A stretch of DNA of 64,000 nucleotides from Saprospiraceae bacterium (GTDB lineage: Bacteria; Bacteroidota; Bacteroidia; Chitinophagales; Saprospiraceae): the NCBI GenBank assembly GCA_026993525.1, contig JALWSS010000019.1:11096-75095 (forward strand), written 5' to 3'. Positions 43,405 through 50,475 of the stretch are shown piece after piece (position 1 is the stretch's first letter; every line of letters begins with the position of its first letter). A program made the position numbers and the translations under genes. Below the pieces are notes generated by a model. The model saw only the letters and a program-made list of their open reading frames with translations. It did not search any database and was not told the DNA's origin.

Positions 43405-46400
43405 CTAACCATTTGTAAAAGCGACGGCGTTCAGAGATTGCTGAAGTTTTTCCAGCAGTTCCCGTGCCGATTTGAGTGAGTCAACTCCGTCTTTGGTCAT
43501 GATGAGGCTGCGGGGAGTTTTTTTGAGGCCCAGGCCCAGCTTGCTGCCGTTGCTGCCCAGGTATTGGAAGATCGTTTGGAAAGTGGAGCTGTCGTAATAG
43601 CTCGACTGTGGGTTTCCGACAAAGAAGCAGCGCAGTTTTCCATTCTTCAAAATGATGCGTTCAAAGCCGAGCTCTTTGGCTACCCAGCGCAGGCGCAAAC
43701 CGTGAAAGAGTTCTTTGACCGGTGCCGGAATTCTGCCGAAGCGATCTTTGAGCATCTTCTCATAATCGGCGAGTTCTCGCTCGTCGTTGAGGGCGTCGAG
43801 GCGGGTGTAAAGGCTCAGCCTCTCGGAAATACTGCTGACGTAGTCGTCCGGGATGAGCATCTCCGTATCGGTGTCAATTTGCACATCTTTTACGAAGGTG
43901 GTTTTCTTTTTCAATTCTTCTTTGAAGACATCTTTGAAGTCCGTCTCTTTCAGTTCCTGAATGGCTTCTTCCAGGATTCGCTGGAAGGTTTCGTAACCGA
44001 TGTCGGCGATGAATCCGCTTTGTTCGGCACCGAGCAGGTTGCCGGCACCCCGGATGTCGAGGTCTCGCATGGCAATTTCAAAGCCACTGCCCAGGTCGCT
44101 GAATTCTTCTATGGTTCTCAGCCTTTTGCGGGCGTCGTGGGTCAGCACCGACATGGGCGGGCAAAACAGGTAACAATAGGCCTTTTTGTTTGAGCGTCCG
44201 ATGCGCCCGCGAAGCTGGTGCAGGTCGCTGATCCCGAACTGGTTGGCGTTGTTGATGATCATCGTATTGGCGTTGGGGATGTCCAGGCCGGTTTCGATGA
44301 TGTTGGTGCAGACCAGCACATCATAACGGTTGTCAATGAAGTCAATCAGGGCTTGTTCCAGTTTGTTGCTGTCCATCTGGCCGTGGGCCATGGCCACATC
44401 CACGTCCGGGCAGAGGCGTTGGATGAGGGCTGTGATGTCCGGCAGGCTTTTTACCCTGTTGTGCACAAAGAACACCTGGCCGCCCCGGTGCACTTCTTTG
44501 TAAATGGCATCCTTGATCAAAGCCTCGCTGAATATCCGGATTTCAGTGTGGATAGGTTGCCGGTTGGGCGGTGGCGTGCGAATGATGGAAAGGTCACGGG
44601 CTGCCATCAGACTGAACTGCAAGGTGCGGGGAATGGGGGTAGCGGTCAATGTCAGGGTGTCCACATTGGCCTTCAGGGAACGCAATTTTTCTTTGGCGGC
44701 TACGCCGAACTTTTGCTCTTCGTCAATAATGAGCAAGCCCAGGTCTTTGAAGCGCACCTCTTTGTTCAGCAGGGCGTGTGTGCCGATGACGATGTCAATT
44801 TTTCCTTCTTTCAGGTTCCTGAAAATGGCGTTTTTTTCTTTGGCAGACCGGAAGCGGTTCAGGTAATCAATTTTCAGATCGAAATCTGCCAGCCTTTCGC
44901 TAAAGGTTTTGTAATGCTGCAAAGCCAGAATGGTGGTTGGCACCAGCACCGCTACCTGCTTTCCGTCCAGCACAGCTTTGAAAGTAGCCCGAATGGCCAC
45001 TTCCGTTTTTCCGAAACCCACATCCCCACAGATCAGGCGGTCCATCGGGTGGGGCTTCATCATGTCTTCCTTCACATCAATGGTGGCTTTTTCCTGATCG
45101 GGCGTGTCTTCGTAAATGAAAGAGGACTCCAATTCTGCCTGCAGGTAATTGTCCGGCGAGAAGGCAAACCCGGGCGAGGCTTTGCGAACTGCGTAAAGCT
45201 TGATGAGCTCTTTTGCAATGTCCTTGACCTTCTTCCTGGCCTTGCGCTTCAGGTTTTGCCAGGCTTCTGATCCCAGTTTGCTGAGGGCCGGCGGTGTGCC
45301 GTCTTTACCGGTGTACTTGGATATCTTGTGCAGTGAGTTGATGCTCACATACAGCACATCGTTGTTTTTGTAAAAAATTCTGACCGACTCCTGCGTCTGA
45401 CCATTCACGGTAATCTTTTCCAGTCCGGAGTATTTGCCAACCCCGTGGTCAATGTGCACTACGTAATCCCCCGGTTGCAGTTCCCGGAGCATTTTCAGGC
45501 TCATGGCCTTGTCGGCGGTGAAGCCCCTCCGCAGGCGGTAGTGGTGGTGGCGGTGGAAAACCTGGTGATCGGTATAGCAGGCTATTCTGAGGTCTTCGTC
45601 AATGAAACCCTGGTGGATGGCCCTGGTCACCGGCTCAAATTTCACATGCGCCTCGAGGTCTTCGAAAATGGCGTAAAAACGCTCGATTTGCTTTGGGTTG
45701 TCGGTGAAAATGAAATTTTGAAATCCTTTGGCCGTGTTGCTGTTCAGGTTCTCGATGAGCAGGTTGAAATTCTTGTTAAAGCTGGGTTGTGGTTTGCCGC
45801 TGAGACTTAACTCTGACTCGCCCTTGATCGGGTTGGGGTCGGTAGCGGGCGGTCCCAGATTTATCGTTGGGAAATTCTCCAGGGCATCTATCAACTCGTT
45901 CGGAGCAACAAAAGCCCTGTTTCTGAAAAATTCCACCAGTTCACCTGTCTCTGTAATATTGATGCTCTTTGCAAACGACTCTGCCTTCTCGAAACATTCC
46001 TGCAGTTTGTCCAGCAACAGGGTAAAATCCCGTACCCAGAGAACGGTCTCAGGGTTCAGCACTTCCAGCAACGACACTTTCAAGCTGCTGTCAAAACGGG
46101 TGTTGACATTGGGGACAATGGACACCTGCTTCAGGTTCCTGATTGAAAGCTGGCTCAACGGATCAAAAGTGCGGATGCTTTCAATCTCTTCGTCAAAGAG
46201 CTCTATCCGGTAGGGGTAGTCATTGCCGTAGCTGAAAATGTCAATGATGCCACCCCTGATGGAGAACTGCCCCGGCTCGTAAACGAAATCCTCTCGCTTG
46301 AAACCATACTCCAGCAGCATTTCAATCACAAAATCCACCTCCAGTTCCTGACCCGCCACCATTTCTATTTTGGTCTTCGCCAATGCTTCCGGATCAACCA

Positions 46401-46800
46401 CTTTTTCAAAAAGCGCCTCCGGATAGCTGATGACAATGGCCGGAACGCCCGTTTTTGACGTCAGCTTGTTAACCGTTTCGGTTCGTTCCAGCACATGGGT
46501 GCTGTTCAGTTCTTCAAAATACTGCGGCCTTTTGAAAGAGTCGGGGAAGAACAACACCGGCTTGCCTTCCAGCAAATTGGCAATGCTGTTTTGCAGGTAG
46601 GCGGCCTCTTCCTTGTCAGCGGCAATGAACAGGTGAGGCTTTTTCTCAGCGAGGTACAGTCCGGAAAGGACAAAGGACTCCTGCGCACCCGCCATGCCAT
46701 TGAGCTTTACGTGGCGGTTGTTGCCCTGTAACAATTGTTGGAGCTTTTTGGTGCCAGGTGCAACTGCATACAGGTTGAGTATGGTCTCCAGGTTTTTCAC
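43405..46800 (-). CDS. mfd: Transcription-repair coupling factor
   Basis: 1131 aa. Helicase motifs GDVGFGKTEVA and LLIIDEEQKFG, plus UvrB-homology and TRG regions. The start appears to be GTG at 46800. Confidence 0.95.
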   Translation of the reverse strand: MKNLETILNLYAVAPGTKKLQQLLQGNNRHVKLNGMAGAQESFVLSGLYLAEKKPHLFIAADKEEAAYLQNSIANLLEGKPVLFFPDSFKRPQYFEELNSTHVLERTETVNKLTSKTGVPAIVISYPEALFEKVVDPEALAKTKIEMVAGQELEVDFVIEMLLEYGFKREDFVYEPGQFSIRGGIIDIFSYGNDYPYRIELFDEEIESIRTFDPLSQLSIRNLKQVSIVPNVNTRFDSSLKVSLLEVLNPETVLWVRDFTLLLDKLQECFEKAESFAKSINITETGELVEFFRNRAFVAPNELIDALENFPTINLGPPATDPNPIKGESELSLSGKPQPSFNKNFNLLIENLNSNTAKGFQNFIFTDNPKQIERFYAIFEDLEAHVKFEPVTRAIHQGFIDEDLRIACYTDHQVFHRHHHYRLRRGFTADKAMSLKMLRELQPGDYVVHIDHGVGKYSGLEKITVNGQTQESVRIFYKNNDVLYVSINSLHKISKYTGKDGTPPALSKLGSEAWQNLKRKARKKVKDIAKELIKLYAVRKASPGFAFSPDNYLQAELESSFIYEDTPDQEKATIDVKEDMMKPHPMDRLICGDVGFGKTEVAIRATFKAVLDGKQVAVLVPTTILALQHYKTFSERLADFDLKIDYLNRFRSAKEKNAIFRNLKEGKIDIVIGTHALLNKEVRFKDLGLLIIDEEQKFGVAAKEKLRSLKANVDTLTLTATPIPRTLQFSLMAARDLSIIRTPPPNRQPIHTEIRIFSEALIKDAIYKEVHRGGQVFFVHNRVKSLPDITALIQRLCPDVDVAMAHGQMDSNKLEQALIDFIDNRYDVLVCTNIIETGLDIPNANTMIINNANQFGISDLHQLRGRIGRSNKKAYCYLFCPPMSVLTHDARKRLRTIEEFSDLGSGFEIAMRDLDIRGAGNLLGAEQSGFIADIGYETFQRILEEAIQELKETDFKDVFKEELKKKTTFVKDVQIDTDTEMLIPDDYVSSISERLSLYTRLDALNDERELADYEKMLKDRFGRIPAPVKELFHGLRLRWVAKELGFERIILKNGKLRCFFVGNPQSSYYDSSTFQTIFQYLGSNGSKLGLGLKKTPRSLIMTKDGVDSLKSARELLEKLQQSLNAVAFTNG

Positions 46801-47023
46801 GGCCGCAAAAGTAAATTGATGTTTCCTATCGTGAGCAGGATTCGCCTGCCTTACTGTTCAGGGTAATTCGGAACCCTAAGCGACAGAATTATACAGATAG
46901 CCGGATGTTTTGTTGCTAACCCCGGGTTTTGGCGAAGGTTTTCTGGCTCCAAATTCCACTGTCAAGCCCTGAGGCAAGTTTTTTATCAAAAAAAATCTCA
47001 CAAAAGTAGCGTGTTTAAAAAGT

Positions 47024-47127
47024 TTTTTCTCACAATGACCACAGGAGTTGTTAGTGGCTTTTGCTTTGTTTTTAAGGGTTTTTGGTAGGTAGTGGCAGTT
47101 TTTTACTTTAAAATTTTTCTCACAATG
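47024..47127 (+). repeat. Two identical 14-mers TTTTTCTCACAATG (47024-47037, 47114-47127)
   Basis: Read directly. Related TCTCACA also occurs at 46996-47002 and 47162-47168. Confidence 0.85.
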
Positions 47128-47258
47128 GCCAATATTTGTCTTTGTTCTTAGCGGAACATACTCTCACATTTGTATCGTGATTATTGACAACGGGGATGAA
47201 CGACAGACTTGAGGGGAAAATCACCGCCGGCTAAAAGAGCCGGCACACAGCTTTGAAA

Positions 47259-47325
47259 ATGTTCATGGGATTATAATTTGTTAGTCAGTCGTCCCGACTG
47301 ATTCTGTCGGGACGAGCTGTTTTTC
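47259..47325 (+). repeat. Box A (ATGTTCATGGGATTATAAT) plus hairpin GTCCCGAC/GTCGGGAC and T5
   Basis: Box at 47259-47277, hairpin at 47291-47313, T run at 47320-47324. Candidate small transcription unit or terminator. Confidence 0.7.
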
Positions 47326-47356
47326 CCACCGGCTCAAAGCTACTTGACAATAGAAT

Positions 47357-47407
47357 ATGTTCATGGGATTATAATTTGTTGGTAGTCAGTCCCCCTCAAC
47401 GAGGGGG
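47357..47407 (+). repeat. Box B (identical 19-mer) plus hairpin CCCCCTC/GAGGGGG
   Basis: Box at 47357-47375, hairpin at 47391-47407. It shares TTGTT(A/G)GT(A)GTCAGTC with unit A. Confidence 0.7.
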
Positions 47408-47493
47408 TACTGCCCAACTTTGAAAAACCCATGCAAGAAATAACGCATCAGCCAATAGCTGGTCAAAAGTGACTGGCGAACTGCAAAAATTAA

Positions 47494-47505
47494 GTTCATG
47501 GGATA
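47494..47505 (+). repeat. Box C (degenerate GTTCATGGGATA) inside a 12-bp inverted repeat
   Basis: GCATCAGCCAAT (47445-47456) and ATTGGCTGATGC (47563-47574) flank the box. A further hairpin lies at 47588-47616. Confidence 0.6.
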
Positions 47506-47640
47506 CGAACTCTAATGCAGACTCAAACTTGGGATACAAATCAACTCTTTCGCAAACAACACATTGGCTGATGCAAACTTATACTGGGAAAGGCCCCGCA
47601 AAAAGCCCGGCCTTTCATCCCAAAAGAATCGTTTTTGGAT

Positions 47641-47692
47641 ATGTTCATGGGATTATAATCAAAGTCGCACCTGCACGGTGCGATTTTTTTTT
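47641..47692 (+). terminator. Box D (identical 19-mer) plus strong terminator-like hairpin TCGCACC/GGTGCGA and T9
   Basis: Box at 47641-47659, hairpin at 47665-47683, T run at 47684-47692. It is on the plus strand, opposite to both flanking genes. Confidence 0.7.
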
Positions 47693-47788
47693 GCCCCTAC
47701 TCCATCCATCCTGGTATACCCAAGTCGAAGTAGTTTGGGAAAATTTCAGCTTTGAACTTCAGGAGGGGCTGGGAGTTTGGGTCCCGAA

Positions 47789-47806
47789 TCCCGAAAGCTT
47801 TCGGGA
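47789..47806. repeat. Hairpin family H4 (TCCCGAAAGCTTTCGGGA)
   Basis: Perfect 18-nt palindrome. Relatives at 50525-50542 (TCCCGAAGGCTTTCGGGA) and 51476-51489. Confidence 0.85.
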
Positions 47807-47854
47807 CCGGGATCGCCGCCCAAACCACTTCGTTTTGAGTATATAACCTCACCA

Positions 47855-48904
47855 CTACATGAAATCAACATCCACGTAATAGGGATAGCGCATCAGGTAG
47901 TCTATGGCCTCGCTGATGTCATAGCCTTCGTGAACCGCCCGGTACAGCATCTGGGTGATGGGCACGTGGAGCTTCAGGTGATCGGCCAGGTACTTGGCGA
48001 TGCGCAGGGTGCGGACACCTTCTGCAACTTCGGGCATGGAGTTGAGGATGTCGCCCGGTTTTTCGCCTTTGCCGAGGCGGTAGCCGAAGGTGAAGTTGCG
48101 GCTTCGGGAACTGGTAGCCGTGCATACGAGGTCGCCGATGCCGGCCGTTCCGACGAAAGGCTTTGGCGAAGAACCCAGGGCTTTTCCGAAGTAAATCATC
48201 TCCATCAGACCGCGGGTGATGAGCAGTGACTGGATGTTCTTTCCCATGCCCAGGCCCGACAGTATGCCGCTGCCGATGGCAATGATATTCTTCAATGCTC
48301 CCGCCAGCTCGGCACCTTTTATCTCATAGGTTCCGAAGACCTGAAAGCGACGGCTGCTCAACGTGGACTTTCCAAGTTCTATCACTTCGTCAAACTTACT
48401 GCCGATGACGGTGGCGGTCGGCTGACCCTCGAATATTTCCGAGGCAAGGTTGGGCCCGGAAAGGCAGCCCACCCTTACCACCACACTCTCCTCCCGTATC
48501 ACCTCGCTCATGGTGATGACACTGTTGGGCTTGATGCGGCCGTTTTCGAGGTCCTCTTCGGTTATTTTCCGAAGATCCAAACCTTTGGTGCCGTGAATCA
48601 GAATGTGGTAAGGATGCAGAAAAGGCGACAGGTCCTTCATCATCTGCCTGAAGTTGGCCGAAGGAACAATGGGAAAGATCAGCGTGCAGCGACCAGCAAT
48701 TTGTTCGAGATCGGTGGTGGCAGTGACATTTGGTGAAATAGCTACATCGAGGTTGGGGTGGTGGTGGCTTTTGTTGATTTCGTCCACCAGGTCCTGGTTT
48801 CTGCTGTAAAGCAAAACATCCGTATTGTGCGAAAGCAGGTTGCCGATGGCCGAGCCAAAACTGCCTGCGCCAATCACACCTACCACATTTGCTTTGCCTG
48901 CCAT
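47855..48904 (-). CDS. gpsA: NAD(P)H-dependent glycerol-3-phosphate dehydrogenase
   Basis: Start at ATG 48904 (MAGKANVVGVIGAGSFGSAIG). Typical GpsA length and C-terminal domain. Confidence 0.9.
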   Translation of the reverse strand: MAGKANVVGVIGAGSFGSAIGNLLSHNTDVLLYSRNQDLVDEINKSHHHPNLDVAISPNVTATTDLEQIAGRCTLIFPIVPSANFRQMMKDLSPFLHPYHILIHGTKGLDLRKITEEDLENGRIKPNSVITMSEVIREESVVVRVGCLSGPNLASEIFEGQPTATVIGSKFDEVIELGKSTLSSRRFQVFGTYEIKGAELAGALKNIIAIGSGILSGLGMGKNIQSLLITRGLMEMIYFGKALGSSPKPFVGTAGIGDLVCTATSSRSRNFTFGYRLGKGEKPGDILNSMPEVAEGVRTLRIAKYLADHLKLHVPITQMLYRAVHEGYDISEAIDYLMRYPYYVDVDFM

Positions 48905-50127: not shown

Positions 50128-50475
50128 TCAGCTATTTTCCAGAATGGCTTTCAGCGCCACAGCGTTGTTTTGCACTTCGTCTTTCTTCGCAAACAGGAAG
50201 GTGATACTGCCATGTTCGATTTCGATGGCCCGCAATTGTTGAAGCAAATCCTCCTTTTGTCCGAGCTCTTTTCTGTATCGCTTCGCAAATTCCTCCCGGA
50301 TCCCCTGGCCACCGTACAGCCATTTTCCCATTTCGTTGCAGGGAGCCACTTCCTTTAGTCAAAGGCCCACCCGGGCATGTTCTCTCTTCAGGCCCCCCGG
50401 CCACAGCCGGTCCACCAGAATGCGGTAGCCATCATCGGAGGCCGGCGCTTCGTAAATTCTCCTCGTTCTAATCAT
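50128..50475 (-). pseudogene. DUF488 (YeaO-like) gene interrupted by in-frame TGA at the conserved Trp codon
   Basis: ATG at 50475. Reads MIRTRRIYEAPASDDGYRILVDRLWPGGLKREHARVGL-TGA(50359-50361)-LKEVAPCNEMGKW...LFAKKDEVQNNAVALKAILENS, 116 codons in one frame. Confidence 0.75.

Follow-up and report, generated by a model that had tools for sequence, protein, structure and literature searches.

A predicted RNA gene between mfd and gpsA

In a 64,000-nucleotide (nt) stretch of the genome of a Saprospiraceae bacterium (assembly GCA_026993525.1, contig JALWSS010000019.1, positions 11,096 to 75,095; here called the window), the genes mfd (43405-46800) and gpsA (47855-48904), both on the - strand, are separated by a gap of 1,054 nt. 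We analyzed this gap and conclude that it is probably occupied by one independent + strand gene for a noncoding RNA of ~517 nt, in which a repeated sequence box would provide antisense seeds. The only open reading frames (ORFs) in the gap, such as one at 47469-47846 on the + strand, were those that overran the predicted terminator into unconserved sequence. The 19-mer ATGTTCATGGGATTATAAT occurs exactly at 47259, 47357, and 47641, always on the + strand, and a search of the whole 64-kb window allowing up to 3 mismatches found no further copies (0.01 expected by chance). A fourth copy of its core, GTTCATGGGAT, is found at 47494; all four copies thus lie within the gap, at spacings of 98, 135, and 149 nt. 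An initial annotation of the region had described the three identical 19-mers, the degenerate fourth copy, the irregular spacing, the hairpins after boxes A, B, and D with runs of T5 and T9, a perfect 12-bp inverted repeat around box C (47445-47456 and 47563-47574), the - strand orientation of both flanking genes, and the lack of a credible ORF; each of these we found as described. The same annotation had held that the feature belongs to the + strand and is separate from the termination of the flanking genes, and this also agrees with our results. The features of the gene, in 5' to 3' order, are the following.

47113-47125, + strand: upstream promoter element, a T-rich run plus TCACAA (47120-47125)
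47135-47144, + strand: -33 region TTTGTCTTTG, with TTG at 47142-47144; family form TTTTGTCTTTG
47165-47172, + strand: -7 box CACATTTG, conserved as (G)CA(T/C)ATTTG in the full-length homologues and the family
47176-47692, + strand: predicted primary transcript, ~517 nt; 5' end placed within ~3 nt, with T9 forming the 3' end
47177-47224, + strand: 5' stem GUGAUU (47177-47182)/AAUCAC (47219-47224), from the minimum-free-energy fold
47226-47244, + strand: hairpin H1, GCCGGC-UAAAAGA-GCCGGC, upstream of box A; 6 of 6 pairs covary
47259-47277, + strand: box A, canonical 19-mer; extended consensus at 47252-47285
47286-47324, + strand: hairpin A (47286-47319) plus T5; 13 of 13 pairs covary in 150 modules
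47357-47375, + strand: box B, canonical 19-mer
47387-47412, + strand: hairpin B, CAGUCCCCCUC/GAGGGGGUACUG, with one bulge and no T run; compensatory changes at 3 pairs
47445-47456, + strand: 5' arm of a long-range stem (perfect 12 bp) that encloses hairpin Hc and box C
47458-47477, + strand: hairpin Hc, GCUGGUC-AAAAG-UGACUGGC, with an NAAAAG loop, upstream of box C; compensatory pairs, fold
47492-47507, + strand: box C, degenerate, AAGTTCATGGGATACG; 100% conserved in the close clade
47563-47574, + strand: 3' arm of the long-range stem
47588-47616, + strand: hairpin GAAAGGCC...GGCCUUUC, from the fold; in relatives the sequence varies and the structure is partly kept
47620-47638, + strand: small hairpin CCAAAA-GAAUCGU-UUUUGG directly upstream of box D, from the fold
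47641-47659, + strand: box D, canonical 19-mer; relatives keep only the ATATGTTCATGGGATTAT part
47665-47692, + strand: intrinsic terminator UCGCACC-UGCAC-GGUGCGA (hairpin 47665-47683) plus U9

Promoters of the Bacteroidota have the form TTG-N19-21-TAnnTTTG. In the window, the TTG of the -33 region is 20 nt upstream of the -7 box, inside this spacing, and the fit would place the start of transcription near 47176. The -7 box is also the point at which sequence conservation of the locus starts. When the full-length homologues were aligned, the promoter read, in order, the T-rich run with TCACAA, TTTTGTCTTTG, 19 to 20 unconserved bases, GCA(T/C)ATTTG, and TATCGTGA. TCACAA precedes the G in the -7 box by about 52 to 47 nt, and its positions were individually 72 to 93% conserved across 43 aligned promoters. 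The promoter pattern preceded the first box in 43 of 109 loci and was found in 6 of 254 control regions and in 2 of 108 stretches between boxes; a -7 box combined with a -33 TTG preceded none of 116 later boxes. A promoter profile had 88 matches in 1.2 Mb of sequence, each followed by a box within 300 nt, and these matches covered 80 of 121 loci; the extended motif was not found elsewhere in the 1.2 Mb. The first box lies 40 to 110 nt downstream of the promoter, with a hairpin in between.

Among the hairpins of the window's RNA, only the last is followed by a strong terminator run, the T9 that ends at 47692. Across the family, the median T run was 8 after the hairpin of the last unit and 4 after those of internal units (P = 6e-22). 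Since the promoter stands before box A alone and the strong terminator at the last hairpin alone, the gap would yield one RNA of ~517 nt, transcribed from a dedicated promoter of the Bacteroidota type (TCACAA, -33 TTG, and -7 box CACATTTG) to the T9 after box D. We infer both transcription itself and the exact 5' end from these motifs. Hairpin A with its T5 may be a partial terminator, perhaps giving a shorter isoform of ~150 nt.

The initial annotation had instead proposed four independent, short, paralogous small RNAs (sRNAs), with the box as their shared promoter or 5' handle. Such a reading draws on the TATAAT within the box, on a match to a sigma-70-type promoter at box B (TTGACA-17-GATTAT), on the T5 and T9 at hairpins A and D, and on the existence of tandem sRNA arrays, of which LhrC1-4 of Listeria and PrrF1/2 of Pseudomonas are generally known examples. 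However, a start just after TATAAT would leave a transcript consisting of the hairpin only, box D of the relatives lacks TATAAT, and the TTGACA of box B is not kept in locus L009. The box spacing fits neither the Bacteroidota -33/-7 promoter nor sigma-70, and the counts given above (0 of 116 later boxes, 2 of 108 inter-box stretches) leave the later boxes without promoters. A separate terminator for each unit is likewise not supported, the internal T runs being weak. We therefore consider four separate transcripts improbable.

Two more copies of the promoter element lie upstream within 46990-47115 (ATCTCACAA at 46995-47003 and TTCTCACAA at 47026-47034), and beside them the -33 region (47059-47074) and the post-box sequence (47079-47093) recur as weak copies. 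They may be the relic of a duplicated promoter or unit, or additional regulator sites in a region shared with the divergent mfd promoter. The TCTCACA repeats were also considered as DnaA boxes of an oriC; this was rejected because they are part of the family-specific promoter element and because the flanking genes are codirectional.

Structure and distribution of the RNA family

The predicted RNA folds into a string of hairpins plus one long-range stem, and the fold z-score of the window sequence was -7.9 for the + strand and -6.1 for the - strand. Its repeated module consists of an upstream hairpin, the box, and a downstream hairpin; the hairpin sequences vary among loci, and the pairing is maintained. 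When 25 sequences were aligned by hand, 79.7% of the cells paired, versus 69.9% after shuffling (none of 500 shuffles reached 79.7%) and 25 to 47% when the pairing partner was slid out of register. With 150 modules aligned to a covariance model, an alignment that had itself been fitted to the structure, 83% paired versus 52%, and double changes numbered 867 versus 294. The 5' stem reads GUGAUC/GAUCAC in L009, a compensatory change seen in the alignment; the NAAAAGN loop of H1 recurs in many genomes; the run after hairpin A is retained as T4 to T6 in relatives; and the stretch AAGAATCGTTTTTGGATATG, in the small hairpin before box D, is invariant in the clade. The long-range stem is invariant in the close clade, and other lineages have, at the same relative position, stems of different sequence (e.g., CGCGTCAA/TTGACGCG and TTTCGCACCA/TGGTGCGAAA); thus, it covaries between lineages. 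Because a covarying hairpin lies upstream of the box, the box itself lies inside an RNA.

This structure bears on the view that the locus is a feature of the DNA, either an array of operators for a DNA-binding protein, as the initial annotation had also considered, or a dispersed repeat or mobile element of the repetitive extragenic palindrome (REP) or miniature inverted-repeat transposable element (MITE) kind. The occurrence of the box in at least 120 genome stretches, the palindrome ATTATAAT within it, and the six contigs in IMG/VR that carry the unit would suit such a view. However, the hairpins that follow the boxes gave the better fold on the box strand in 181 cases versus 43 on the other (227 cases), with 462 versus 179 G-U pairs (P = 4e-23). 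Hairpins that covary, with G-U pairs on one strand only, contradict an array of protein-binding sites in DNA. Furthermore, every box of a locus is on the same strand, there are 1 to 5 copies per locus, a dedicated promoter and terminator are present, terminal inverted repeats and a transposase are absent, and relatives have the boxes at orthologous positions. The 19-mer owes its wide occurrence to an RNA gene family to which it belongs rather than to being the end of a mobile element. We regard a DNA-level feature as very improbable.

Mfd homologues place the window in Saprospirales. In five relatives whose Mfd proteins are 77 to 92% identical to that of the window, 47163-47696 is almost invariant, exceeding the conservation of the neighboring proteins; the flanks, 46801-47130 and 47700-47854, are poorly conserved. 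At 92, 89, 84, and 77% Mfd identity, the mfd loci have four boxes whose order, spacing, and strand are unchanged, and the full-length homologues have both ends in common with the window's predicted RNA. The element stays in place in L003 and L004, where gpsA is replaced by other genes, and it is intact in the relative with 92% Mfd identity, where a pair of genes for extracytoplasmic function (ECF) sigma factors is the upstream neighbor in place of gpsA. Linkage to mfd is confined to the close clade (the surroundings of mfd in relatives at 74 to 76% Mfd identity had no boxes), and gpsA is convergent to the RNA in three further loci. Constant synteny with mfd or gpsA, true only within the close clade, was therefore rejected.

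We scanned for the box with the pattern ATGTTCATGGGATTATNAT, using one genome per species, and found it in at least 120 stretches. Among the matches listed, nearly all belonged to Saprospiraceae, Lewinellaceae, or Saprospirales, one carrier being a cultured species, Phaeodactylibacter luteus KCTC 42180 (L058, contig NZ_VOOR01000007.1), and each locus had 1 to 5 boxes on a single strand. The conserved box has the core AUAUGUUCAUGGGAUUAU and the extended form UUUGGAUAUGUUCAUGGGAUUAUAAUUUGUU; the consensus of 227 units was TTTGGATATGTTCATGGGATTATAATTTGTTg, followed by a hairpin of variable sequence, and these units showed no conserved promoter-like signal directly upstream of the box. In boxes outside the selection made by the search pattern, the core 18-mer and ATATGTTCATGGGATTAT were nearly unchanged. 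A covariance-model search found 169 modules in 99 sources. Predicted family members are 107 to 797 nt long and have 1 to 5 boxes, two being commonest. In Rfam 15, the window and 8 related loci had no family match at gathering thresholds, and the gap (46700-47950) had nothing near a match at E ≤ 10, so that the motif is, as the initial annotation had supposed, outside any named RNA family; a literature search for the box motif gave only unrelated primer sequences. The RNA family extends across Saprospiraceae and Lewinellaceae and is previously undescribed, having neither an Rfam 15 match nor a record in the literature searched.

The box (47259-47276 and others) contains the 8-nt palindrome ATTATAAT and the palindrome CATG. 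It also contains a five-codon ORF, ATG TTC ATG GGA TTA TAA (MFMGL*). As a coding element this ORF was rejected: box D has no such stop codon in L003, L005, and L009, all codon positions are conserved, and conservation continues past its end. RNAalifold paired box A with box B via GGAUUAUAAUUU, in columns that are invariant.

Short two-box paralogues, with their own promoter, lie 150 to 250 nt downstream of MbnP and MbnH (di-heme CCP_MauG) gene pairs on the same strand (L016, L032, L035, L039, L044, L047, L052, L060, L064, L072, L087, L091, L096, L119, L123, L132, and others), and an AT-rich inverted repeat, ACATATA-N9-TATATGT, stands ahead of many of their promoters. MbnP was rejected as a target of the adjoining paralogues because its start regions have no consistent complementarity to the box. 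The six predicted viral contigs from IMG/VR (L135 to L140) each carry one full box-plus-hairpin module and no family promoter. Model R1 scored these modules at 33 to 46 bits, and the one in L140 begins immediately after the stop codon of an ORF. Several of these units are near contig ends, and the units are possibly in host flanks of prophages.

Candidate targets of the boxes

Other paralogous loci lie downstream of a gene for a cargo protein of the type IX secretion system (T9SS), ~830 to 870 amino acids (aa) long. A variant of the box unit occurs in nine loci; it reads ..ACATTCATTGC..ATTCGTGGAATTATAATCATTGC.., continues with a hairpin and T5 to T9, and lacks a promoter of its own (L024, L054, L058, L066, L074, L117, and L122, and also L015 and L021; e.g., L122:7608-7700). 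The unit is located between the stop codon of the cargo gene and the promoter of a multi-box RNA that follows. Where the available sequence includes the preceding ORF, the unit lies 110 to 250 nt after it; in seven loci this ORF is the cargo gene, with ~830 to 850 aa and the domains Big_9, Cadherin_5, Dockerin_1, and Por_Secre_tail. More divergent copies occur in L030, L065, and L069.

The reverse complement of the variant unit matches the start region of its own gene (AGCAATGA.., ..TCCACGAA.., and ATGAATGT). Duplexes between the unit and positions -28 to +14 of that gene had free energies (ΔG) of -19 to -32 kcal/mol, with z-scores of -2.3 to -6.8 relative to shuffled sequences. When 919 start regions were ranked by duplex energy, the lowest belonged to the cargo gene family for all 9 variant units, and that family held at least three of the four lowest places for 7 of the 9. 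In L030 there is a compensatory change: the mRNA has CCACGATT with AATCGTGG in the unit, where elsewhere CCACGAA is matched with TTCGTGG. The variant unit may be an sRNA derived from the 3' untranslated region (UTR), or it may serve for pairing between the 5' and 3' ends of a single mRNA. This match of a variant box to a variant site is the best available evidence that the boxes act as start-codon antisense seeds.

For the canonical box, a pairing screen of 917 start regions brought up the orthologous T9SS cargo gene repeatedly among the best matches. Its start region reads ...AGCAAUGAAUUAAAAUCCACGAACC AUG AAUGUAUC..., and the box pairs with CCAUGAAUGUAUC (13 bp including 2 G-U pairs, spanning the AUG) plus AAUCC in ten species, at ΔG values of -18 to -26. 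Since the canonical box is complementary to ...AAUCCC AUG AAC AUA U..., start regions with this sequence would be expected as its cognate targets; the ideal site would be ...AAUCCCAUGAACAUAU... across the AUG of genes encoding Por_Secre_tail or CHU_C proteins.

We propose that the boxes would act as antisense seeds that pair with the translation initiation regions of mRNAs, across the AUG, and repress translation, the likely targets being genes for surface proteins secreted by the T9SS. Both the base-pairing mode of action and the target class are what we infer from sequence complementarity. Several seeds in one transcript could provide multivalency, or the transcript could be a precursor that is cut into units of ~60 to 70 nt. 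A posttranscriptional circuit for T9SS surface proteins, shared by the whole family in Saprospiraceae, can be imagined, in which polycistronic seed arrays, each transcribed as a precursor from a single promoter, are cleaved before each box (UUUGG/AUAUG) into sRNAs of ~60 to 70 nt, each a seed plus a hairpin, and 3'-UTR variant seeds pair with the 5' end of their own mRNA; this we offer as a speculation that is rather unlikely to hold. If true, cleaved seed arrays would be a bacterial counterpart of microRNA clusters.

A number of results weigh against the proposal. The transcription start and the single-transcript model are deduced from the logic of the motifs. The pairing between the canonical box and the cargo gene is modest (8 of 300 shuffled boxes equaled it on energy), and the ten start regions concerned are homologous, so they amount to one observation only. 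Helices of at least 12 bp with start regions numbered 24 for the real box and 19 on average for shuffled boxes, a difference that is not significant; the longest-helix statistic for the box against start regions did not discriminate and was dropped. In the window and the 1.2 Mb, the partial match in the cargo gene was the only start region complementary to the canonical box. The strong complementarity belongs to the variant box, which the window does not have; the window's RNA is not adjacent to a T9SS cargo gene, and its neighbors differ among lineages. Nor was the box more exposed in partition-function folding than the rest of the RNA (unpaired probability, 0.40 versus 0.39). A search for the complement of the box at gene starts of the window and the related loci gave only the antisense of the boxes themselves and one chance site inside guaB. 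Finally, an invariant stretch of 18 to 28 nt repeated within one transcript is also compatible with a protein-binding site.

The last of these points leads to the rival that we take most seriously, although we still think it unlikely: a decoy RNA of the CsrB/RsmZ or CrcZ type, whose boxes bind an RNA-binding protein (e.g., one with an RRM domain) that the RNA titrates. To our knowledge, Bacteroidota have no CsrA, and the phylum also has neither Hfq nor ProQ. We found no homologues of CsrA or Hfq by tblastn in the 1.2 Mb, a small sample, apart from one spurious match to an ApbE-like ORF. The layout is what a decoy would have: 1 to 5 copies of an invariant motif are set among stable hairpins, the RNA ends in a terminator, the promoter is dedicated and conserved and includes an upstream element, and a genome has several paralogous loci. 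The box also contains two GGAU motifs 13 nt apart, UUUGGAUAUG and CAUGGGAUUAU, as read from the sequence. However, a motif of 18 to 28 nt is far longer than those of known sponges, and protein binding alone would leave unexplained the specific complementarity between the variant box and an mRNA start region, with its compensatory change. In Bacteroides, the protein RbpB binds the seed-bearing part of the sRNA FopS (PMC11697453). Seed and protein site thus need not be mutually exclusive, and we continue to favor antisense seeds.

Related systems and neighboring sequences

Of the systems described so far, FopS/GibS of Bacteroides thetaiotaomicron comes closest; the window family resembles it in design without being a member. 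These multicopy RNAs consist of a conserved single-stranded seed and a terminator hairpin in units of ~65 to 70 nt; the seed pairs around the start codon of mRNAs that encode envelope or surface proteins, such as susC, and blocks translation, one copy is phage-borne, and the RNAs are bound by the RRM protein RbpB (PMC11697453). The two families occur in the same phylum, are multicopy, and have promoters of the -33/-7 type; the repeated unit of the window family is a box with a hairpin and a T run, and its hairpins covary, a likeness of design, not of homology. The phage copy of FopS has its parallel in the six predicted viral contigs with the unit. However, the window and the 8 related loci had no covariance-model or sequence match to FopS/GibS (Rfam 15). 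FopS-type sRNAs each have their own promoter and a seed at the 5' end, whereas here 1 to 5 seeds share one promoter and one strong terminator, later boxes being without promoters (0 of 116). In the window family, moreover, a hairpin precedes each seed, the long form has an extra domain closed by the long-range stem, and the promoter contains TCACAA, an element specific to the family. Its candidate targets are T9SS cargo genes instead of susC, and the carriers are environmental Saprospiraceae.

Tandem near-identical seed units are also found in LhrC1-4 of Listeria and PrrF1/PrrF2 of Pseudomonas, where each unit has its own promoter and terminator; PrrH results from read-through of the first terminator and spans both PrrF units. 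The likeness lies in the near-identical, seed-bearing units in tandem within one intergenic region. In contrast, the RNA described here has a promoter at the first unit only, and its spacers are unrelated structured domains, not duplicated genes.

In CsrB, RsmY, RsmZ, and CrcZ, a short motif is repeated a variable number of times between hairpins, the RNA ends in an intrinsic terminator, an upstream promoter element is conserved, and a genome has several paralogues; in this layout these RNAs resemble the family. They differ in that the motif here is 18 to 28 nt long instead of GGA or an A-rich hexamer and in that there is evidence here for complementarity to mRNA; unlike in CsrB and RsmZ, the GGA triplets are in the box between hairpins, not in hairpin loops. 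The RNA is also distinct from 6S RNA, for which, as for the Bacteroidales-1 and Flavo-1 models, there was no Rfam match and which is a rod of ~180 nt with a central bubble, not a string of hairpins with a long-range stem. In type III antitoxin arrays like ToxI, repeats of ~34 to 36 nt run head to tail, whereas the units here are 98 to 149 nt apart with unrelated spacers, and a downstream ORF on the same strand, which would be the toxin gene, is absent.

Riboregulation in Bacteroidota beyond the gut Bacteroides is almost unexplored. The family described here is delimited by its own promoter signature, a near-invariant element of 18 to 28 nt, and a covarying structure, and has the start codon regions of T9SS cargo genes as candidate targets. 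Its carriers are Saprospiraceae from marine, wastewater, and hydrothermal settings, which are abundant environmental bacteria. For a base-pairing RNA, a transcript with several identical seeds would be a rare architecture. Genes of the family can be annotated in metagenomes with the promoter and module models.

Between the RNA terminator and the gpsA stop codon, the window has an inverted repeat (47715-47843) with 25-nt arms, 84% complementary, around a second hairpin that is rich in GC. The repeat is found in none of the relatives and has a single copy across the window and the related loci; being unique, this palindrome downstream of gpsA was rejected as a repeat family. Two short metagenome contigs with the same gpsA (L001 and L002) terminate within it.

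A DUF488 gene beside a chlorophyllase-like hydrolase, at ~50128-50404 of the window, was called as two fragments of 38 and 67 aa in the two contigs with the exact GpsA of the window (L001:1061-1408 and L002:427-774). The relatives L005 and L009 have it as one gene of 115 to 161 aa, which points to a frameshift or pseudogene in the lineage of the window.

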